A stretch of DNA of 21,185 nt. Origin: Promethearchaeota archaeon (GTDB lineage: Archaea; Asgardarchaeota; Lokiarchaeia; Sigyniarchaeales; SOKP01). The notes beneath the pieces are model-generated. The model had not been told where the DNA came from. It did no database searches and worked only from the letters and a program-made list of their open reading frames with translations. Numbering within the stretch: the first letter of the stretch is position 1; each line of letters begins with the position of its first letter. The position numbers and the translations under genes were made by a program. Below, in pieces: positions 711 through 15,023 of the stretch. The stretch spans positions 1 through 21,185 of the forward strand of contig JBHLME010000080.1 of assembly GCA_048938445.1 (NCBI GenBank), in the 5' to 3' direction.

Positions 711-2765
711 TTGGTAAAAGTCTCTGAAATATTTGAAAATTCTCCTGGAAAAAAAGTATTAATGTCTGGAAATGAAGCATTTGCTCGAGGTATTTATGAG
801 TCGGGTGTGAGATTTGCTGCTAACTATCCTGGAACACCTTTAAGTGAAGTTGGAGATTATTTAAAATATCTATCAGAAACTTCGGAAGAATTTACGTTTG
901 ATTATGCCTTGAACGAGAAAGTAGCTCTTGAATCTTGTATTGGTGCTAGTTGGGCAGGAGTTAGAACCGTTGTAATGTTCAAGCATGTGGGATTGAATGT
1001 TGCTGCTGATCCATTACATACATTTCCTTACTCTGGAACAAATGGAGGAATGATCATCCTATGTGGAGGAGACCCAGGTATTCTATCATCAACTAATGCC
1101 CAAGATAATAGGTTGTATTCTCTTCATACAAAGATTCCAATTATCGAACCATCTACCGTTCAAGAATGCAAGGATTTTATTAAAGAGGGATTAATGATAT
1201 CTGAAGAATATAATGTTCCTCTATATATTCACGTGACTACTCGGTTATGTCATAGTGAGGGTATTGTTACCTATGGTAAAATAGAAAAACCACAAAAAGT
1301 AGGATATTTCAAAAAAAATCCGAATCGTTTTGTCAATACTTTATGGAAAGCTCAAGCAAACCAAGAAGATTACTTTCAGAGAATAAAAAAAATTAACCAA
1401 AATAAAACTCTCTTTGCATCATTAATAAAGGAAAAAAAAGAAGGAACAGATAGTAACATTGGAATATTAACAAGTGGTATTTGTTATAGTCATGTCGTGC
1501 AAGCATGCAATAAATTAAAAATACAACCTCCAATCCTCAAGTTAGGATTAATATATCCAATTAATAAGGATTATATTCATGATTTTGTGGATAATAATAA
1601 GCTTAAAAAGCTATTAGTCGTTGAGGAATTAGAGCCCTTTATTGAAAACTATATAATCCATATTATTAATAAATATCATAAAAACCTTAGAGAACTTGAA
1701 ATCTTAGGTAAAGACTTTTTACCTCGTACCGGTGAATTAAATACTGAAATCATTATCAAGTTTTTTTCAAATAATTTTGATATTAAAAATAAAAGCTTAT
1801 TGGACAATATATATAAAAAAGAAAGGATCTTAAAAGAAATTTTACCTGAACTACCAATAAGAGAACCTACATTTTGCCCAGGTTGTCCTTATCGTCCAGT
1901 TTTTTATAAGTTAAGAAAAGTAACTGACAAAATTACTAAAGAATTAGGAACTGAATTCATTTATGGAGGAGATATTGGATGTTATACTCTTGCAGAAGTA
2001 TATCCTTACGAAATGATGGATTGGGTAATATGTATGGGTGCAGGAATAGGTATTGCAAATGGAATGTCTCATGTAATAGATTCAAAAAAGCAGAAACTCA
2101 TAACTTTTATTGGAGATAGTACCTTCTTCCATACTGGTATTCAACCTCTCTTAAATGCCATAAAGAATGAAATCGATATAACCATTATCATCTTTAATAA
2201 TGATTGGACAGCAATGACGGGACATCAAGAACATTTAGCAACTCCAAGGAACTTTATAAAGCATTTTGGATCAAAATCACATATAGATAAAAAAGGACTG
2301 AATCTTGTCGCTTTCCTTGAAAGTTTGTCATTGGATAATTTAATAATTACTGAAGCGTATAATCTTGAGAAGCTTGAGAGGATTTTTTCAAATATTTTAA
2401 CTAAAAATGGAACAAATATAATAGTCATTAGAGAAGAATGTGCCTTGGAGAAAAAAAGAAGGTCAAGAAGGCAAATCCAAGATATTAGAAATAAGAAAAG
2501 TGAAACATACTATACCATTTCAGAATCATGCGTTAAATGTAATGAATGTATTGAGATATTGGGGTGTCCAGCAATAAATGCTGAATATGTGAATATAGCG
2601 AAAGATAAAAATAATGAAATTGTGAAAGAATTAAGGTATTATATTGATGAATCACGATGTATTCCTGATATATGTCCAGGAGTATGCAAATTTACTTGCC
2701 CCAACAATTTGATTCGAAAAACAATCATAAATCCTCAATTAGATGAAAAAAAAAGAAAAAAATAA
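711..2765 (+). CDS. iorA: Indolepyruvate:ferredoxin oxidoreductase alpha subunit
   Basis: Motifs GNEAFARG, YPGTP, NEKVALE, KHVGLNVAADP, DPG..SS.NAQDNR, R.PTFCPGCP, GDIGCYTL, TPP-binding GDSTFFHTG...NN..TAMTGHQ, and a C-terminal ferredoxin CVKCNEC...GCPAI. TTG start. Confidence 0.95.
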   Translation: MVKVSEIFENSPGKKVLMSGNEAFARGIYESGVRFAANYPGTPLSEVGDYLKYLSETSEEFTFDYALNEKVALESCIGASWAGVRTVVMFKHVGLNVAADPLHTFPYSGTNGGMIILCGGDPGILSSTNAQDNRLYSLHTKIPIIEPSTVQECKDFIKEGLMISEEYNVPLYIHVTTRLCHSEGIVTYGKIEKPQKVGYFKKNPNRFVNTLWKAQANQEDYFQRIKKINQNKTLFASLIKEKKEGTDSNIGILTSGICYSHVVQACNKLKIQPPILKLGLIYPINKDYIHDFVDNNKLKKLLVVEELEPFIENYIIHIINKYHKNLRELEILGKDFLPRTGELNTEIIIKFFSNNFDIKNKSLLDNIYKKERILKEILPELPIREPTFCPGCPYRPVFYKLRKVTDKITKELGTEFIYGGDIGCYTLAEVYPYEMMDWVICMGAGIGIANGMSHVIDSKKQKLITFIGDSTFFHTGIQPLLNAIKNEIDITIIIFNNDWTAMTGHQEHLATPRNFIKHFGSKSHIDKKGLNLVAFLESLSLDNLIITEAYNLEKLERIFSNILTKNGTNIIVIREECALEKKRRSRRQIQDIRNKKSETYYTISESCVKCNECIEILGCPAINAEYVNIAKDKNNEIVKELRYYIDESRCIPDICPGVCKFTCPNNLIRKTIINPQLDEKKRKK

Positions 2766-2775
2766 AAAAAAATAG

Positions 2776-3822
2776 CTATAATTTTTCAGCTCTAAATACT
2801 GTCACAGGAGTCGTGTATTTAATCTTTGAGAATCCTGCATCTGTTAACCATTGTGTCATATCTTCTTTTTTAAAAGAACCATAAGCACCTTCAAAAACTC
2901 TAATAAGAACGCTTAAATATGGATTTACGCGCGGAATAAACACATTCGTTCCAAAAAAGATCCCTCCAGGACGCAAGACTCGATACACTTCCTTGATAGC
3001 TTTCTTAGGATCCGTCCAATGTAAAACCTGCGATATGTATACATAATCGAAGAATTCATCTTCATATGGTATTTCACTAATGCTTCCAAACTGAAATTTA
3101 GGAAATAATGTTTTATATTCCATTATTTCTTCTCTCGATAAAATCTTATGATGAGCAGCAATGCGATCAAATTCTTCTGTACCTATTCTAATGAAATCGG
3201 TATTGTAATCTATCGCATGTATTTGTAACTTACTATTTGGGTGTACATGCCCCTCTTTATAGTAGTATAACCAAATTGCTGATGTTCCAATGCCCATTCC
3301 ACATCCTCCATCAAGGAATGTTCCAGGTTTTTCGAGTACTTCTGGAGTATATATAAATGCTGCTCGTCGAATTGCTTCATAAGCTTGATTTGCTAACCAA
3401 TCATCCCAATTAAATAAATTAAAAGCCCCTGAAAATTCAAGATACTTGCCTCTCAAGCGATCTGGGAGTCCATCTGCATAATCTAAGAAGATTTCAACAA
3501 TAGATTCATCAAAACCCTTTGGGATTTCAACACCATTAGAATTTAGTGGTTTAAGAAGTTGATATCTGCCATCATTCATTTGCACCATCGTTTTATCACT
3601 TTCCAATGCATTTAAAAGGGTTAGCATATAGTCCTTGTCAGTATAAGAAAAATGTTCCATAATCTCTTCTACTGTTCTTGGAACTACTAAAAAATCATTC
3701 CAAGCTTCATTTACAAGAACCCTAACTACGGTATCCCTATAAAAGACGTTAATTCCCTTAAGTTGCTTTTTAGCTTTCCCAACCTTAAAAATTTCCCTCC
3801 AGGCGTTTATTGCTTTTGAAAT
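2776..3822 (-). CDS. Class I SAM-dependent methyltransferase with N-terminal helical (wHTH-like) extension; probable ATT start
   Basis: Motif I LDGGCGMG, IPYEDEFFDYV, VLHW, EVYRVLRPGG. The frame stays open upstream of the listed ATG at 3660 until TGA at 3829-3831. SD GAGGTGA (3835-3829) lies 6 nt before ATT at 3822. The start position is inferred. Confidence 0.85.
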   Translation of the reverse strand: MSKAINAWREIFKVGKAKKQLKGINVFYRDTVVRVLVNEAWNDFLVVPRTVEEIMEHFSYTDKDYMLTLLNALESDKTMVQMNDGRYQLLKPLNSNGVEIPKGFDESIVEIFLDYADGLPDRLRGKYLEFSGAFNLFNWDDWLANQAYEAIRRAAFIYTPEVLEKPGTFLDGGCGMGIGTSAIWLYYYKEGHVHPNSKLQIHAIDYNTDFIRIGTEEFDRIAAHHKILSREEIMEYKTLFPKFQFGSISEIPYEDEFFDYVYISQVLHWTDPKKAIKEVYRVLRPGGIFFGTNVFIPRVNPYLSVLIRVFEGAYGSFKKEDMTQWLTDAGFSKIKYTTPVTVFRAEKL

Positions 3823-3865: not shown

Positions 3866-5044
3866 TCATTCTAATAGTTTTCTTCTATTAACAAAATCAA
3901 TTAATTCTATAAATTCTCCTAGATCTTCATAGTCTTCGATTTTCCTCAGAAATTCAATTAAGCTATTGTCTTGATAGAAAAATGAAAGAATAATTGATTT
4001 TTCAATTGAAAATTCTGAACCCAATCTATTAATAATCCTGTCTATTCTTTCTTTAAATCTTATTTGTATTTTGGAATATAATAGATCATCAGAAATCAAT
4101 CGTGTTATAAGGGGTATTTTAGATTTTGAAATAGGATCTTCGTTAAAAAAATCATTTAACATCAAGAGACGAGGGCTATTGGAAATTAAATTCCCTTCAA
4201 ATAATGCTTTGCCTATAAATTCTTCTAAAACAGGGTTTAACCACTGTAAATTGAGTTCATTTTTTAAATTTATACAAATCACATTAGAGTGTGAAACCCA
4301 TAAATGAAAAGTCTTATCTGCTATTGAAATTGTCAAATAGGGTGGAATTTCTGAATAGATACTATTTGCTTCCATAATTTTTTTAAATAACAGATTCACT
4401 AATTCAATAGAATTTAATAATGGTGTTCGTACCAATTCATAGATCCAATGATCAAATATGTTAAAAATGATGAAGACGTTAAACGTTTGGTGGGATTCAA
4501 TTGCAATTCGCTCTTGCTCTGAATAATTAAAGAATTTTTGAGTTCCATCTTGTTTATTACCATAATTTTCTAATTTTACGATATATGAATTTAGAAAATC
4601 ATAGAGATCTCCATGATCATCTACAAGAACATTATTGACATGTAATTCATTTCTATAGTAATGTGCTACCTTATAAGAACTTAGATCTTTCCCTAAAAAT
4701 TTTTTATGAGGATCTTTTTTAAGATATGAACTTTCATCATTAATGTTTAACTCTATTTTAGAGTTGCATAATTGGCAATTAAAATGCGTTACTTTAATTA
4801 TTTGATCCATTAGTTCGAAATCTACTTTTTGATATCCACGAACCTTAAAGTCTTTATCTAAGAAAATTTGAAAATGATGATCACAGATAGTATCCTTAGG
4901 AATGGATATCGTAGTAAGACCTGATTTTTTTAGAATATTTGATGGAACGTGTATATCTTTTTTAAAGTTGCATGTTGGACATGTTACTGGCACAGTTTGG
5001 CTAATTAGTTCATTTCCATCAATTAAAAAGAGATTTTCTACCAT
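3866..5044 (-). CDS. Lokiarchaeia-type hypothetical protein with N-terminal Cys/His (Zn-binding-like) domain
   Basis: 392-aa ORF with CPTC...GLTTISIP...CDHHFQIFLDKDFKVRGYQKVDF, a pattern I recognise from Lokiarchaeia proteins, followed by a degenerate second copy (CQLC...VAH...LHVNNVLVD). Confidence 0.8.
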   Translation of the reverse strand: MVENLFLIDGNELISQTVPVTCPTCNFKKDIHVPSNILKKSGLTTISIPKDTICDHHFQIFLDKDFKVRGYQKVDFELMDQIIKVTHFNCQLCNSKIELNINDESSYLKKDPHKKFLGKDLSSYKVAHYYRNELHVNNVLVDDHGDLYDFLNSYIVKLENYGNKQDGTQKFFNYSEQERIAIESHQTFNVFIIFNIFDHWIYELVRTPLLNSIELVNLLFKKIMEANSIYSEIPPYLTISIADKTFHLWVSHSNVICINLKNELNLQWLNPVLEEFIGKALFEGNLISNSPRLLMLNDFFNEDPISKSKIPLITRLISDDLLYSKIQIRFKERIDRIINRLGSEFSIEKSIILSFFYQDNSLIEFLRKIEDYEDLGEFIELIDFVNRRKLLE

Positions 5045-5547: not shown

Positions 5548-6238
5548 TTGATAGGAGATATATATAATATACTCATAACCGGAGTTGGAGGGCAAGGGGT
5601 AGTATTACTCGGTAAAATCTTGAGAGAATATGGCATGAAATCTCCATTGATAAAAAATGTCGTTGGTACCGAAACTAGGGGTGTTTCGCAGAGAGAATTT
5701 AGATGAATATATTATAAATTCCTGCATAGAAGGCTCCGTTTCAGCAACGGCACGATATTTGATAGATGGAAGGTTATATTCGTTGGAACAAGATTACGAA
5801 ATTGAAGATTTAATATCTCCAACAATTCCAATTAATGATTCTCACTTGGTCTTAGGTCTTGAACCTTTAGAAACCATCAGAAACATTAAATATATTTCTG
5901 AACAGACAGTTGTAATATTAAACACACATCGAAATTTTCCTAGAAATGTAATAATAGGTTCAGAGAAGGAAAAAAAATATCCCTCAAATGCAGAAATTCT
6001 GGAGAAACTAGATGAATTAGCAAGAAGAGTCATATCAATGAATTTTAATGAATTATCTAATACAAAATTCAACAATCCTATTTATGCTAACAGCATTATT
6101 TTAGGAGCAGGTGTTAAAGAATTCAAAGAAATTTTTGATAAAAAAATGATAATTAACTTGTTAAAAGAATTTTTCAAGGATTCAAAAGAAAATATTGAAG
6201 CATTTGAATTAGGATATAAATTAATTGATTCATCATAA
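5548..6238 (+). CDS. iorB: Indolepyruvate:ferredoxin oxidoreductase beta subunit, intron-split: join(5548..5693,5728..6238), 218 aa
   Basis: Exon 1 (frame 1, TTG at 5548 after GGTGA) reads MIGDIYNILITGVGGQGVVLLGKIL...VVGTETRGVSQR. Exon 2 (frame 2) reads EGSVSATARY...SPTIP...VLGLEPLETIR...NSIILGA...ENIEAFELG. All are IorB/Por-gamma family motifs. The listed ORF at 5657 has a spurious N-terminus. Confidence 0.9.
5694..5727 (+). other. Putative 34-nt bulge-helix-bulge (BHB) intron in iorB mRNA
   Basis: Central helix GCAG(5688-5691)/CTGC(5722-5725); 3-nt bulges AGA(5692-5694) and ATA(5726-5728); inner helix GAATTTA(5695-5701)/TAAATTC(5715-5721); outer helix TTTC(5684-5687)/GAAG(5729-5732). Excision restores the frame. 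An in-frame TGA lies inside the insert at 5704-5706. Confidence 0.85.
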
Positions 6239-6355: not shown

Positions 6356-7249
6356 ATGAAGGACCAACAACTTAAGGTATTTAAGATCTTATATTCGGGA
6401 GAAATTGAGGAAGTAATAAATACTAAACTAATAGATTTATTTTCTTTATTAAATGTGCTGGCTTTTTATTCACAAGAGAAAAAGAAGTTATATATATGGG
6501 TTGGTTCACATGCTTCAAGAACAATTAAAAATTATATCGTTAAATTGCGTCAAATTTTCACGAATGATTATCCTGAATATCGAGTGTTGAGATACATTAC
6601 CATAGAATCTAAAGCTGAGCCTTTCGAATTTTTTGAAAATACAGGTATTTCAAAACGATCACTTCAAAAAAAGATTTATAGTGAAGAATCAAAATATGAA
6701 GAACATGAAAATGTAATTAACCAAATTAAAGATTTAAAAGATAAAGCAGATACGTATTTTGAGATGGAAAATTATGAACAAGCGATAATTATATCCAAAG
6801 AAATAATCAATAAAGCAAAAGAAATAAATGAAAAATTATTGATCCGTGACCAAATAGAATTTATTTCAGAAGCAGAAGCACGGGCTAAAGCAAAGGTTGC
6901 ATTAAATGATATTAGAATGGAGAAAAAAATATTAAAAAATAAATTTGAGAATATACGACAGAGTTCAGATATAATTAATATTTATAATGAGGCATGCATT
7001 TTTGAGCAGAAATATTTGGAATATTTAGATTTAACAGCACTTTCTGATGCAAAAGCCTTAATAAATAATATTAAATATTCTTATAAAACTTTTAATGATG
7101 AATATGAAAAGTTAGAAAATTTTAACGCATTCCTAGAAGATATAAATGTTTTAAGATTTAAAGCCAAAGAGGCTCTAAAGCAACGTGAATTCCAAGAATC
7201 AATAAAAAAATTTAAAGAAATTTTAATAATCTTGAATAATCGTAATTAA
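6356..7249 (+). CDS. Single gelsolin-like domain protein with C-terminal helical/coiled-coil (TPR-like) region
   Basis: The N-terminal ~100 aa contain LYIWVGSHAS and ITIESKAEPFEFF, matching the gelsolin-repeat consensus (YxWxG..S ... E..E..EF). The rest is E/K-rich helices (KADTYFEMENYEQAI). Confidence 0.7.
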   Translation: MKDQQLKVFKILYSGEIEEVINTKLIDLFSLLNVLAFYSQEKKKLYIWVGSHASRTIKNYIVKLRQIFTNDYPEYRVLRYITIESKAEPFEFFENTGISKRSLQKKIYSEESKYEEHENVINQIKDLKDKADTYFEMENYEQAIIISKEIINKAKEINEKLLIRDQIEFISEAEARAKAKVALNDIRMEKKILKNKFENIRQSSDIINIYNEACIFEQKYLEYLDLTALSDAKALINNIKYSYKTFNDEYEKLENFNAFLEDINVLRFKAKEALKQREFQESIKKFKEILIILNNRN

Positions 7250-7264
7250 TAGAGATGCAAAATA

Positions 7265-9388
7265 ATGAGTGAACAAATAGAACGAATAATGAAGAAGTTT
7301 AAGGAGATTTTTATTATAAGGAATGAAGATGTTAAAAATTATTTAATCAAATATTATTATGAATTATTTAATAATCAAAAAGTTAAAAAAGTTGAGAGAA
7401 TTGATGCCACTCGCATGATAAAGACATTAGGATTTAGAAAAAACTTGTCTTCATGGAAAAATTCTTATGATAATTTAGTAGTAAGTACATGTGTTAAAAT
7501 CAAAGGAGAAAAAAAGCGATATAACTATAAATTTTACTTTATTGAAGAGAAATTAAGCTCAGAGTTAGTAGAACAAATAGAAGACATTATGATGGATGTA
7601 AATAACTTAAAAGAGCGGTTTGAGTTCTCTGAAGCATTTAAAAAAATAAAAAGTGCTGAAGATCTAATTAAAAAAAAAAAGGATGCTCATTTTGATAAAG
7701 TACTAAAAAATCTAAAATCTGAAGTAATGAAAGCCGAAAAAGACTATAAGAGCGCTTTAAAGGAAATTAGTATATTCGAAAATGAATTTCAAAAACATGA
7801 ATTAGAAAACGATTTTAAAGCAGCCTTGAAAAAAGCTGAAAAAATTATTCATCGTGCCAGAAGTATAAAAAATAGGGAAAAGGAGAAACAATATACTAAA
7901 AAAAATATTGAATTGAAACAAAAATATGAATTAGATCTATTAGAAAGAATTAAGAATTTAGAAGAGCAAGCAGAAATTTTCAAAAATGAATCACGTTATA
8001 GAGAAACTCTAGTATGTTATGAGGATCTAATCGATTTTCTACGTAAAAATGAAAAGAATGATTTAATTGATAAATATTTAAAAAAAATTAAAGAAATTCA
8101 GCTTGAAAAGGAAGAAACTGAGAAGATTGAAGAATTAAATAGTATCAAAGATCAAATTGCTGAATTAGAAATTAATATCATGTTAAACTACGATGCAGGT
8201 AATCATGGGGTGGTTATCACTCAATGTAATGAAATAATCGATTTATTCCAAAAAATTGAAGAAATAGATTTAAAGGACAAATACACCGAGCTTTTGAAAG
8301 AAGTGCAGCAAAAAGTTGCTGAAATGACCGCACGAGAAGAAGAGATTAACCTTCGAAAGAGGAGAACAGAGGAAGCACTCCAAAAGTATGAGGAAATGTT
8401 ATCTAATAGGGAAAAAGAACAAAAGAATCTCATTAAGAAAGCAAAAGAAGTTGAACACATGATAGAAATACAAGAAGATGTAATACCCCTAATTGAAGAG
8501 TTTACTATAAATGATATCTTAGGAGATTTATCAGATGATATTCAACAACAATTCGAGCAACTTGGGAGTTTATTAAATGAACATCGTGTTAATGTAAAAA
8601 CTAATATTTCTAATAAAGGAATTATAATAAGGTCTTCAGGGGAAGTAATTGAACTTGAAAAGGATATTAATGCAAATAAAATACAAAATGATGAAAGAGA
8701 AGTAATGTATGATGTTCAAATCAAGTTAGAAAATTATTTTGATGATGTTATTGAAGAAGCAATCTTAACAGACTTAATTCCTTATAATTTTGAAATAGTA
8801 GATATAAAAGCAAATAAAGGAGAAAACGAAGAATTACCTAAAAAGATGCTTACCAATGAGGGATTAGAAGTAATATGGAATTTTAAGAAAATTCAACCAA
8901 AAGAAAAAATAGAGATAATTTATGATTTACGTCATAGAATTTCACGTACAATAATTTTCCTGCTTAAAAATCAGTTAAAAATAATAAAAACCCACTTAAA
9001 TATTGAAGACTCAATTCCTAGAATGGAAGGTTTTCATGAAGTGAACATACCTTTTAATAATCCTGGACCTAAACAAATAAAAGGATTAATTGTTGAGGAT
9101 ATCATTCCTCTTTATTATATTCATAATATCAAAGAACCTAAATCTTATATCCCTTATATAAATCAATCACATCAAGGAGATTTAATCAAATGGAATGTTG
9201 GTGAAATGAATGTTAATAGCATCAACTACCACTATAAACTTTTAGAGATTTTCAAATTTGAAGAATTGAAAATATTAATTGATAACTTGGATGAAACTGC
9301 TTTTAACAATTTAAAAAATAATGATAGAGTTGGGTCAATTGAGAAATATAATGAAATATTAGGCTTATTAAATCAATATTTTAACTAA
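7265..9388 (+). CDS. Large coiled-coil/TPR-like protein with two C-terminal beta-sandwich (Ig-like) repeats
   Basis: A long E/K-rich helical region is followed by two repeats of pattern I..EN......I..D.IP..F/Y.I ... I.WN (TDLIPYNFEI...VIWNF; EDIIPLYYI...IKWNV). It starts 15 nt after the gelsolin-like gene, so the two are probably co-transcribed. Confidence 0.75.
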   Translation: MSEQIERIMKKFKEIFIIRNEDVKNYLIKYYYELFNNQKVKKVERIDATRMIKTLGFRKNLSSWKNSYDNLVVSTCVKIKGEKKRYNYKFYFIEEKLSSELVEQIEDIMMDVNNLKERFEFSEAFKKIKSAEDLIKKKKDAHFDKVLKNLKSEVMKAEKDYKSALKEISIFENEFQKHELENDFKAALKKAEKIIHRARSIKNREKEKQYTKKNIELKQKYELDLLERIKNLEEQAEIFKNESRYRETLVCYEDLIDFLRKNEKNDLIDKYLKKIKEIQLEKEETEKIEELNSIKDQIAELEINIMLNYDAGNHGVVITQCNEIIDLFQKIEEIDLKDKYTELLKEVQQKVAEMTAREEEINLRKRRTEEALQKYEEMLSNREKEQKNLIKKAKEVEHMIEIQEDVIPLIEEFTINDILGDLSDDIQQQFEQLGSLLNEHRVNVKTNISNKGIIIRSSGEVIELEKDINANKIQNDEREVMYDVQIKLENYFDDVIEEAILTDLIPYNFEIVDIKANKGENEELPKKMLTNEGLEVIWNFKKIQPKEKIEIIYDLRHRISRTIIFLLKNQLKIIKTHLNIEDSIPRMEGFHEVNIPFNNPGPKQIKGLIVEDIIPLYYIHNIKEPKSYIPYINQSHQGDLIKWNVGEMNVNSINYHYKLLEIFKFEELKILIDNLDETAFNNLKNNDRVGSIEKYNEILGLLNQYFN

Positions 9389-12405: not shown

Positions 12406-14463
12406 ATGGTAGAACGAGAGAGAGATATGAATGACATTTTTGAATTAATAACAAAAATACTGAGAGCTAGTCTGAAATCTCAAAATAATTTAGAAAAGTT
12501 TTTTCAAAAGATAGTTAAAATTGGTAGTCAATATACCAATGCAAATACATGTGTTTGCTTTTTACTTCAAGAACCAAATGAAATAGAAGGGGAGCTTCTT
12601 AAAATATATGCGGCATCAGGCGAAGATGGAGATGCTCTCAAAAACATTGGAGCAAATTATTATATCCCTAAAAAAAATAGAGTACCCTTTATTAATCCAG
12701 GAGAAGGTGAGAATAAGGTTCTAAAATATGTCAAAGACTTTCTCATAATTAAGGAAGGTTATACTAAGGAAAAAATAAAAAAGATAGAAGCTGATGGGTA
12801 TGATGTGTTGGATGAATTAAGAAGGATTGGTCTCTATTTGGGCAATGCAATTGAGAGGATGGGGCATAATTTATCTGAATTAATAGAGGAGAGAAAGCTC
12901 CCAATGGGAATCACGGGTTATGTTGCAAGAACAGGTAAGCCGATTAAAGTAAATGGTAAGGAGGTAAGAAAAGTTCCAGAATGGAGGGGCTCTTATGAAG
13001 GAGTTCATAAAATCTGTACATCTTTAATTGAGCGACCATTAAAATTAAAAAGAAAAACAATAGGTCTTATTAAAATTGAAAATAAAAAAGGAAGTGAACC
13101 AATTGATAATTTTAATAAAATCAGGAAAGAAAAAAAACCTTGTAAATTATATAATTGTTTTGATGAAAATGATGATTTTATTTTAAAGGTCTTGACAGAA
13201 TGTGCTATAATTGCATTTGATAACATGCGTTTTATAGAAGAAACGTATAAAAAGCTATTTGGAACGAAATTATTAAGAAAGATATACGATTTAAAACCTA
13301 GAATACAAGAAATAGCAGATAAAAATGGTTCAGATTTATGTATAAAGATTCATAATACGATTAATACTTTTTATGATCCAATCAAAATTAGGATAGATGA
13401 TTATTTTTCTCTTGATGAAATTTCTAAAAAGGTACTAGCTACTGAAAATGAATTAGCTTCAAGGTTGAAATTAATATTTGTAAAGGATATCATTAATAAC
13501 ATTACTTCTCGGTACGAGGATTTATTAGGAACACTCGTGAAATATAGGGAACATTTTATTCATCAATTTCAAGTCTTTTTACTCGGTTATTGTATCATTA
13601 ATAAGAGTAAAATTGTACAAGAGATCATTTTGCATCATTTAAAGAACAAAGATGAGAATTTTTGCATAGATCATGCATTAAAAGTGTGGTTTTTAACATC
13701 ATGCTTTCATGATTACAGCTATTCTTTTGTAAAAATGGATAAATGGTTAAATAATTATTTAGAGCAAATAGGTATTGATTATGAACAAAATATTGATTGG
13801 GAAACCGTTTTGAAAAAGACTAATCCTGAATTTACAGAATTAGTTAATGTTTTATGTAAAAAAGCTTCAGAACCAGATGAAAAAACATTTAGAGATAAAT
13901 TAGAAAAGAGCATAAAAGATGATCAAGATCATGGGATCATGAGTGCTTTATTATTGATGGTTAAATTAAAAAGAGAAGAAGACTTGAATCCTAAACTATA
14001 TGAAATTGTTTGTGAAGCTCTTGCATTTCACACGATTACGATTCCTTCGAAAGGTCAAAATACAAAATTTAAATTTAAAGATTTAAATATATTAGACTCA
14101 CCTTTTGCATTCTTGTTAGTCTTATGTGATAACATACAAGAATGGGGTCGGATTGAGATGATGAATAAAAAAATTGAATATGATATTAAACTAAAAGAAA
14201 TAGATATCATAAATGGAACTGATAATACTGAAATCTCAGAGAAAATAAATATTAAATTATATTATAAAAATTTTAACATGGACAATATACCATTAATTTG
14301 CGAAAAAATGAATCATCATGCAAAATTCTGGTTTACAATACCAAACTTGAATTTCAACATTAGATTATATCATAAAGGTGGAAGGTTTGATGAAATTACT
14401 TATAAAGCTGACAAGACTAAAAATATTGATTTTATAATAAAAAATATTAAAGAAAGCACATAA
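12406..14463 (+). CDS. GAF domain plus HD-superfamily metal-dependent phosphohydrolase
   Basis: N-terminal GAF signatures (LKIYAASG, GITGYVARTGKP, PL....TIGLIKIENK, FDENDDFILKVL) and C-terminal REHFIHQ...CFHDYSY...DHG...LAFH...LCDNIQEWGR. Confidence 0.75.
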   Translation: MVERERDMNDIFELITKILRASLKSQNNLEKFFQKIVKIGSQYTNANTCVCFLLQEPNEIEGELLKIYAASGEDGDALKNIGANYYIPKKNRVPFINPGEGENKVLKYVKDFLIIKEGYTKEKIKKIEADGYDVLDELRRIGLYLGNAIERMGHNLSELIEERKLPMGITGYVARTGKPIKVNGKEVRKVPEWRGSYEGVHKICTSLIERPLKLKRKTIGLIKIENKKGSEPIDNFNKIRKEKKPCKLYNCFDENDDFILKVLTECAIIAFDNMRFIEETYKKLFGTKLLRKIYDLKPRIQEIADKNGSDLCIKIHNTINTFYDPIKIRIDDYFSLDEISKKVLATENELASRLKLIFVKDIINNITSRYEDLLGTLVKYREHFIHQFQVFLLGYCIINKSKIVQEIILHHLKNKDENFCIDHALKVWFLTSCFHDYSYSFVKMDKWLNNYLEQIGIDYEQNIDWETVLKKTNPEFTELVNVLCKKASEPDEKTFRDKLEKSIKDDQDHGIMSALLLMVKLKREEDLNPKLYEIVCEALAFHTITIPSKGQNTKFKFKDLNILDSPFAFLLVLCDNIQEWGRIEMMNKKIEYDIKLKEIDIINGTDNTEISEKINIKLYYKNFNMDNIPLICEKMNHHAKFWFTIPNLNFNIRLYHKGGRFDEITYKADKTKNIDFIIKNIKEST

Positions 14464-14948: not shown

Positions 14949-15023
14949 AGCCTCGTGGCCTAGTTTGGATAGGGCAGCGGCCTCCTAAGCCGAAGATCGA
15001 GGGTTCAATTCCCTCCGAGGCTG
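14949..15023 (+). tRNA. tRNA-Arg(CCU), intronless, CCA not encoded
   Basis: Acceptor stem AGCCTCG/CGAGGCT, D arm GCCT-AGTTTGGATA-GGGC, anticodon loop CT-CCT-AA (anticodon 14984-14986), T arm GAGGG-TTCAATT-CCCTC, discriminator G. Confidence 0.95.

Follow-up and report, generated by a model that had tools for sequence, protein, structure and literature searches.

A probable 34-nt bulge-helix-bulge intron in the iorB gene of an Asgard archaeon

The iorB gene described here is located on a stretch of 21,185 nucleotides from a Promethearchaeota archaeon (assembly GCA_048938445.1, contig JBHLME010000080.1, positions 1 to 21,185), which is referred to as the window. Comparison of this gene with its relatives made it highly probable that an archaeal intron of the bulge-helix-bulge (BHB) type, 34 nt long, interrupts iorB, the gene for the beta subunit of an indolepyruvate-type 2-oxoacid:ferredoxin oxidoreductase. 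With the same high confidence, the best explanation of the data is a genuine intron that would be spliced from the iorB mRNA by the endonuclease EndA and the ligase RtcB, an intron like that of cbf5, in a gene and a lineage that are both new for the kind. The fold of the insert, its conservation and covariation, the exact restoration of the reading frame, the selection on both exons and the presence of the enzyme genes were computed in this work.

The N-terminal part of the protein was found in frame 1, in an open reading frame (ORF) that starts with TTG at 5548, encodes LIGDIYNILITGVGGQG...ETRGVSQR and runs into the TGA stop codon at 5704-5706, as read from the window and the ORF list. Frame 2 holds the remaining part (EGSVSATARY...), which begins at 5729 and ends with the stop codon at 6236-6238. 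The two frames, their coordinates, the TGA at 5704 and the insert of 34 nt had been claimed by the original prediction, made from the letters of the window, and were confirmed base for base. Deletion of 5694-5727 left 654 nt, equal to 218 codons, which read ...SQREGSV..., in agreement with the 218-aa protein that had been expected from splicing a break inside iorB; SQREGSV was restored in all six loci with a complete insert (see below). The boundary of the intron is uncertain by 1 nt, with A at both 5694 and 5728. The parts of the gene are as follows.

5548..5693, plus strand: iorB exon 1, 48 codons and 2 bases (GVGGQG...GVSQ, then AG of an Arg codon), from the ORF list and tblastn matches to orthologue N-termini
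5694..5727, plus strand: putative BHB-type intron of 34 nt, phase 2, within the Arg codon, missing at the exact site in 64 orthologous loci
5728..6238, plus strand: iorB exon 2, the final base of the Arg codon, EGSVSATARY... and the stop codon at 6236-6238, Pfam PF01558 POR

The product of exon 2 matched PF01558 (POR) at profile positions 49-172 of 173 with an E-value of 1.5e-11 in the Pfam search, and the exon 1 piece, with 52 aa, was too short for a Pfam score by itself. The top NCBIfam matches of iorB were the IorB models, all under their equivalog cut-offs. The orthologue at locus L004, which is an uninterrupted ORF of 219 aa, scored 110.7 bits with the IorB models, covering their positions 6-196 of 197, against an equivalog cut-off of 238. 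Judged from these matches, the protein is IorB-like and not a certified IorB equivalog.

The structure at the junction consists of an outer helix formed by the two exons, a central helix shared by exon 1 and the intron, two bulges and a helix inside the intron, with the following parts.

5678..5687, plus strand: outer helix (h), 5' strand, in exon 1, with bulged G5683 (pair check)
5688..5691, plus strand: central 4-bp helix (H), 5' strand, GCAG, in exon 1 (minimum-energy fold and pair check)
5692..5694, plus strand: 5' bulge AGA, unpaired in the minimum-energy fold, predicted cut after 5693
5695..5701, plus strand: intron helix (h'), 5' strand, 7 bp (minimum-energy fold)
5702..5714, plus strand: intron loop, which holds the TGA at 5704-5706 that ends the exon 1 frame
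5715..5721, plus strand: intron helix (h'), 3' strand (minimum-energy fold and covariation)
5722..5725, plus strand: central helix, 3' strand, CUGC, in the intron (minimum-energy fold and covariation)
5726..5728, plus strand: 3' bulge AUA, predicted cut after 5727 (minimum-energy fold and pair check)
5729..5737, plus strand: outer helix, 3' strand, in exon 2 (pair check and covariation)

In this strict BHB, which is that of the original prediction, 20 of the 20 pairs were standard and a single G was bulged, at 5683. The segment 5670-5745 folded with a minimum energy of -20.7 kcal/mol (z -3.1), a stability reached by none of 200 dinucleotide shuffles, and in its minimum-energy fold the GCAG/CUGC helix and the 7-bp intron helix were formed, with AGA and AUA left unpaired. 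The frequency of a minimal strict BHB at a given position and length was 1.1e-4 in this genome and that of a BHB with at least 4 outer and at least 7 inner pairs was 1.2e-6; only nine of the latter in the whole genome also had three G-C pairs in the central helix. The interruption of iorB by an insert with a BHB is a real feature, far from what chance would give. The same genome contains a canonical tRNA intron at position 37/38 (contig C18), with an outer helix of 7 bp, a central helix of 4 bp, two bulges of 3 nt and a length of 32 nt. Since the 5' strand of this tRNA intron has its outer helix, central helix and bulge in the same order as that of iorB, the cutting rule was used in the right register for iorB, and the window holds the BHB structure of an archaeal intron. 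A known RNA family was rejected as the identity of the insert, as the Rfam search of the site gave none. An origin from a repeat or a mobile element was rejected too: the genome contained no similar second copy of the insert, with AT-rich matches of at most 22 nt as the only ones.

To collect orthologues, exon 2 was searched against 40 related genomes, both pieces were then aligned by tblastn, and the junctions were read. In 14 loci of these genomes (12 close and 2 distant), the two pieces were contiguous in one frame with the sequence ...SQREGS.... Three other loci, L002 (genome G004), L007 (G005) and L017 (G008), contained an insert at exactly the same point within the Arg codon, and the contig of a fourth, L003 (G002), starts inside such an insert, so that the 3' end of the insert alone is visible. 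Further inserts were found at L025, a Candidatus Hermodarchaeota locus from the public species genomes with Promethearchaeota or Promethearchaeia as neighbours, and at L033, from metagenome contigs. In total, the insert was present at the same site in seven loci, the window and six others, and complete in six of them, while 64 orthologous loci, a few of which represent the same organism counted twice, were uninterrupted. This presence and absence had been named in advance as a check, and the relatives, Promethearchaeota and Hermodarchaeota, bear out the Asgard host that had been guessed from the letters. Within a set of 43 loci, three had the insert (one of them, L023, is the same contig stretch as L002), one was the partial contig of L003, two (L055 and L058) were without an exon 1 match and 37 were uninterrupted, one of these duplicating L004. 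Counted by genome, 35 of the 135 members of the GTDB family had an orthologue, with the insert in six (G000, G002, G004, G005, G008 and G051); 26 were confirmed at the junction as uninterrupted, and the other three have open frames of 214-217 aa. At L055, positions 1-1001 of a metagenome contig, an intact exon 2 homologue (EGSV...) had no exon 1 match within 1 kb upstream, and possible reasons are truncation of the gene, a far longer intron or a gene split in two.

The complete inserts measured 34, 34, 32, 29, 32 and 32 nt, and none of these lengths is divisible by 3. The inserts of the window, L002, L025 and L033 were clearly related in sequence, and those of L007 and L017 were widely divergent. 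An artefact of assembly or sequencing might be suspected in a metagenome-assembled genome of 256 contigs with 8% contamination, the more so as the related contig of L003 ends within the insert, but the insert occupied the same site in seven loci with diverged sequences, of which five belong to other GTDB genomes (G002, G004, G005, G008 and G051) and one to a metagenome contig. Assembly error was excluded because six other loci carry the insert, and the probability of an artefact of any kind is next to nil.

Among the 30 of 120 listed entries of the protein collection that were read, those with at least 83% identity to exon 2 (P0002, P0003, P0004, P0005 and P0074) were N-truncated gene calls in five of five cases, and P0002, P0003 and P0004, with 191-193 aa, run through the sequence of the insert. 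No full-length protein of the spliced form was found above 78% identity among the entries read. As these five proteins of close relatives were all N-truncated and the best full-length one reached 78%, the insert seems to be fixed in the sub-lineage. The entries P0092-P0105 were near-identical gene calls of 145 aa, similar to L033 and starting with MEDLISP, which suggests that gene callers systematically truncate the insert-bearing iorB genes.

With a cut placed behind the second base of both bulges, GVSQREGSV was restored in six of six complete loci, the same sequence that is contiguous in the uninterrupted orthologues. The 5' bulge AGA was unchanged in all six sequences, and the third base of the 3' bulge was A or G in all six, so the rebuilt codon is always Arg. 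Covariation was studied in an alignment of these six sequences (window, L002, L007, L017, L025 and L033), in which 84% of the cells of the named structure were paired, compared with 35-53% when the 3' partners were slid by 1-3 columns. Both sides had changed in eight pairs; the mean of the shuffled alignments was 3.2 and none of 500 shuffles reached eight, a control that overstates significance for related rows. Five of the seven pairs of the intron helix were compensated. The central helix was paired in 96% of the cells, and its pair next to the outer helix (alignment columns 27-64) was G-C in three sequences, A-U in L017, G-U in L033 and an A.C mismatch in L002. The outer helix, whose strands are made of codons and are partly kept, was paired in 74% of the cells. 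As judged from the sequence changes, the pairing is kept in evolution via compensatory changes. The compensatory changes in GCAG/CUGC that had been proposed as a check were thus seen in one pair, as G-C/A-U/G-U, and failed to appear for the A.C mismatch of L002. The word "canonical", which had been applied to the BHB, is correct for the window with its 20 standard pairs and does not hold for several orthologues, whose weaker outer helix or mismatch makes their inserts, as modelled, relaxed BHB forms.

Two readings that leave the insert in the mRNA were weighed against this pairing. In the first, exon 1 (52 aa) and exon 2 (about 170-193 aa) would be translated separately as a split gene and then assembled. 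The window and L002 have an ATG in the exon 2 frame 72 nt upstream of the EGSV codon, which gives the 193-aa ORF reported by gene callers, but no ATG, GTG or TTG precedes EGSV in this frame in three of the six loci (L007, L025 and L033), and the first start codon of L017 falls after EGSV. Moreover, no motif of the family is more conserved than the one in which the break lies, and the residues encoded by the insert in the exon 2 frame were not conserved. In the second reading, ribosomes would pass the insert by a programmed frameshift or a bypass (hop), with the hairpin as the stimulatory structure. A hop from GAA to GAA would be allowed in four of the six loci (window, L002, L025 and L033), where GAA is found just past the 5' boundary and exon 2 has GAA again for its first complete codon, and the exon 2 frame is open through the entire insert in five of six; L007 and L017 have no matching take-off codon, and the GAA/GAA pair, present in four of six, falls short of the conserved take-off and landing codons of a bypass of the phage T4 gene 60 type. 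Inserts of 34 nt would call for a frameshift in one direction and inserts of 32 or 29 nt for one in the other, and a frameshift would put 10-11 non-conserved residues within GVSQREGSV. The covarying pairing of exon 1 with the 3' end of the insert is needed by EndA and by neither frameshift, hop nor separate translation. We regard the split gene as very improbable and ribosomal recoding as slightly more so.

The exons of the insert-bearing genes are, by their substitution patterns, under strong purifying selection. Between the window and L002, the nonsynonymous divergence (dN) was 0.091, the synonymous divergence (dS) 1.55 and dN/dS 0.059, and dN/dS was 0.067 between L025 and L033, which both carry the insert. 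These values are close to the 0.053 of the uninterrupted pair L005 and L006. The dS between insert-bearing copies was 1.5-2.0, with synonymous sites at or beyond saturation. Both exons were open across 215 codons in five of the six insert-bearing genes. Such long-term purifying selection on both halves implies that both would be expressed as protein.

Several observations, on the folds of the inserts, on one orthologue and on the rest of the genome, weigh against the reading of the insert as a spliced intron. In the window, ViennaRNA shifted the outer helix by one register and left C5687 unpaired opposite AUA, which forms a 1x3 loop, and the strict 3' bulge of 3 nt was 2.5 kcal/mol above this minimum-energy register (-14.5 vs -17.0). 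The minimum-energy fold combined the central helix with the 5' bulge and the intron helix in three of the six sequences (window, L025 and L033), and L002, L007 and L017 folded alone with other pairings. The z-scores were -2.66 for the window, -0.20 for L002, -0.98 for L007, -3.56 for L017, -0.76 for L025 and -1.85 for L033, which is below -2.5 in only two of six. The A.C mismatch of L002 followed a synonymous change and was not compensated, the third pair of the outer helix was an A.A mismatch in L017, L025 and L033, and the covariation as a whole rests on six related sequences. In addition, L017 (G008, genus g4) had a frameshift of 1 nt near codon 180, about 380-560 nt into exon 2, and formed the longest ingroup branch of the tree; in this lineage, iorB may be decaying, or the assembly may contain an error.

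The extra frameshift and long branch of L017, the uncompensated mismatch of L002 and the detachment of iorB from iorA in this genome would be consistent with a decaying pseudogene, in which iorB was disrupted by a small insertion whose BHB-like fold has no significance. Against this, dN/dS was about 0.06 despite the saturated synonymous sites, as in uninterrupted copies, both exons were open in five of six copies, and the helices covaried. A second, paralogous iorAB pair was found in the same genome (contig C172) and would make the loss of iorB tolerable, yet the exons are conserved. The chance that iorB is a pseudogene appears as slight as that of a split gene.

The original prediction had proposed that other apparently frameshifted genes of the genome may be spliced; this proposal found no support in a genome scan of low sensitivity. 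The scan for strict BHBs on both strands, with lengths of 12-160 nt, gave 153,398 motifs. A first filter for the fusion of ORFs was non-discriminating, as it passed 2753 motifs compared with 2679-2959 when the length was shifted. Among BHBs linking two open frames, 2538 of 7288 (0.348) did so in frame, which is about the one-third expected by chance, and the in-frame fraction stayed at 0.25-0.40 at most higher stringencies and ranged from 0 to 0.67 in subsets of at most eight rows. The 49 strong compatible candidates that were read look like gene boundaries or non-coding frames; one with an intron helix similar to that of iorB, at 33976-34012 of contig C135, was rejected as the spacer between two genes of pyridoxal-phosphate (PLP) enzymes. 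In the paralogue test, 122 of the 2538 junction peptides had some alignment across the junction, and of the 12 alignments inspected, only that of iorB ran cleanly through a conserved motif. The cbf5 gene of this genome was uninterrupted. The scan was insensitive: it recovered none of the 14 tRNA introns called by ARAGORN and missed the canonical tRNA BHB of contig C18, whose intron helix next to the bulge has only 1 bp. Relaxed BHB introns and genes without paralogues would be missed owing to this insensitivity, and general mRNA splicing was not evident in this low-sensitivity scan, which gave no evidence for it and is not evidence against it.

Two side observations were made in the scan. At C18 14387-14526, ARAGORN called a tRNA-Trp with a 50-nt intron, and the region holds a clean canonical BHB of 32 nt that would leave the anticodon loop CUUGAGA; calls of tRNA introns appear unreliable for this genome. 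On the plus strand at C214 ~61811-61873, C204 ~3193-3273 and C117 ~2546-2686, the paralogues code through a stretch that is a multiple of 3 in length and holds an in-frame stop, and these stretches are possible pseudogenes, errors or recoded stops.

The history of the insert was examined in a gene tree of 57 rows, obtained by a quick maximum-likelihood method. The seven insert rows were found in one poorly resolved region of the tree, with at least four changes needed, two of which are forced by well-supported branches. L007, with the insert, was the sister of L008, without it, at 99% support. Holding the seven insert rows together cost 29.9 log-likelihood units, with a borderline p = 0.047 in the approximately unbiased (AU) test for a group that was defined with the tree already known. 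Given the related inserts of the window, L002, L025 and L033, one old gain followed by several precise losses would be the simplest reading, and repeated gain of the insert is the alternative. The iorB intron would be old, judging from the saturated synonymous sites of its host genes. If the losses were precise, a spliced copy would have to have recombined with the gene, which amounts to RNA-mediated intron loss in archaea, and the pattern of presence and absence would provide a small system for studying the gain and precise loss of archaeal introns.

The enzymes expected for such splicing are encoded in the genome. Two EndA homologues (PF01974, 107 and 70 bits, above the cut-off), with ORFs of 202 and 204 aa, were found on contigs C26 and C80, and one RtcB (PF01139, 564 bits) on contig C28. 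The Tyr/His/Lys pattern, which we take to be the catalytic triad of EndA, was kept in the 202-aa paralogue, and the His was missing in the 204-aa one, a difference that fits an alpha-beta pair with the 204-aa protein as the putative beta subunit. According to an earlier study (PMC5829648), Asgard archaea have an (alpha-beta)2 EndA, whose L1 loop is linked to broad specificity, and relaxed BHB forms are cut only by the (alpha-beta)2 and epsilon2 endonucleases.

In the mechanism proposed here, the end of exon 1 in the transcript would pair with the start of exon 2 to form the outer helix and with the 3' end of the intron to form the 4-bp central helix, and the intron would fold on itself into the 7-bp helix, which leaves two 3-nt bulges on opposite strands. 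EndA would then cut behind the second base of both bulges, at 5693 and at 5727, an RtcB ligase would join the exons, and the intron would probably be released as a small circle. The joined mRNA would read ...GVSQREGSV... and encode a protein of 218 aa working with IorA. Cleavage, ligation, the intron circle and any regulatory role are what we infer from sequence. Removal of a BHB intron by the tRNA-splicing machinery, as the original prediction had it, is supported by the comparative evidence of seven loci, covariation, selection and the genes for EndA and RtcB. With somewhat less confidence than for the intron itself, we consider it likely that Asgard archaea use the tRNA-splicing endonuclease and RtcB to splice a protein-coding mRNA, and that the intron is old, kept in several lineages and precisely removed in others.

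In the window, iorB is separated from the gene of its partner subunit, iorA, which lies 2.8 kb upstream, by two genes on the minus strand.

711..2765, plus strand: iorA, alpha subunit partner, 684 aa, TIGR03336 IOR_alpha, 546 bits
2776-3660, minus strand: methyltransferase gene (ORF list and Pfam)
3866-5044, minus strand: ORF without a Pfam match (ORF list and Pfam)

This iorA was 69% identical to the iorA of L004, which directly precedes the L004 iorB and ends 7 nt before it. A flanking iorA match was found in 34 of the 60 loci searched. Among the insert-bearing loci, iorA was not seen in the approximately 0.8-1.3 kb upstream of most (L002, L007, L017 and L025) and was seen at L033. Elsewhere in the window, an uninterrupted tRNA gene is present at 14949-15023 (Rfam RF00005, 62.7 bits). 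Three large ORFs of 297, 707 and 685 aa, at 6356-9388 and 12406-14463, had no significant Pfam family, and the first two of them (297 and 707 aa) are rich in Lys and Glu with a coiled-coil-like appearance.

The nearest known counterpart of the iorB insert is the BHB intron in the pre-mRNA of cbf5, a pseudouridine synthase, of the Crenarchaeota (Desulfurococcales and Sulfolobales), described in PMC2738675. As of 2009, according to that paper, archaeal pre-mRNA splicing was confirmed for cbf5 alone, and introns were predicted in other genes. The literature that can be searched in full text yielded no BHB intron for an Asgard protein gene or for iorB, in line with the original prediction, which knew of none, and cbf5 of the Crenarchaeota was the sole experimentally confirmed archaeal pre-mRNA intron found there. 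No earlier intron of this sort lies outside cbf5 and the Crenarchaeota or in a metabolic gene, so that the iorB intron, if true, would be a first case in both respects. A second case, in the lineage nearest to the eukaryotes, would show that the tRNA-splicing machinery accepts protein-coding transcripts there, and the insert would offer a concrete, short substrate for the biochemistry of Asgard EndA. It is also a warning for annotation, since gene callers give truncated proteins of 145-193 aa for these genes, which are then miscalled or taken for pseudogenes.

Both cbf5 and iorB contain a short BHB intron within a gene coding for protein, which has to be removed for the frame to continue, and the cbf5 hosts have a hetero-oligomeric EndA, as is predicted for this genome. 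Both introns are patchy among related lineages, a pattern that the cbf5 study reads as gain with secondary losses (PMC2738675). The two cases differ in that IorB would be a subunit of a metabolic oxidoreductase and Cbf5 is an RNA-modification enzyme, and in that the former belongs to Asgard archaea and the latter to the TACK (Thaumarchaeota, Aigarchaeota, Crenarchaeota and Korarchaeota) archaea. Splicing was demonstrated by experiment for cbf5, whereas we infer it for iorB.

The BHB introns of archaeal tRNA and rRNA, including Asgard tRNA introns, have the same motif geometry and predicted enzymes as iorB, from which they differ in the host RNA, an mRNA in iorB. Asgard tRNA genes are heavily interrupted, and two EndA paralogues were reported in 44 of 60 genomes, in a preprint that contains no occurrence of "mRNA" and uses "protein-coding" solely for neighbouring genes (10.64898/2026.10.13.758758).

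A comparison can further be drawn with eukaryotes, to which Asgard archaea are the closest prokaryotic relatives. The iorB intron, if true, would be a direct prokaryotic counterpart of eukaryotic mRNA splicing that is carried out by proteins only and ligated by RtcB. In the non-spliceosomal splicing of HAC1/XBP1, the mRNA is cut by Ire1 and, in animals, ligated by an RtcB-type enzyme. RtcB and XBP-1 are both named in the abstract of PMC8718801. As proposed for iorB, a short frame-changing mRNA intron is removed there by a protein-only endonuclease and a ligase, with a ligase of the RtcB family. The HAC1/XBP1 system differs in that the endonuclease is Ire1 and not EndA/TSEN and in that the motif consists of two stem-loops, and nothing suggests that splicing of iorB would be regulated by stress; the likeness is one of analogy and not of membership.

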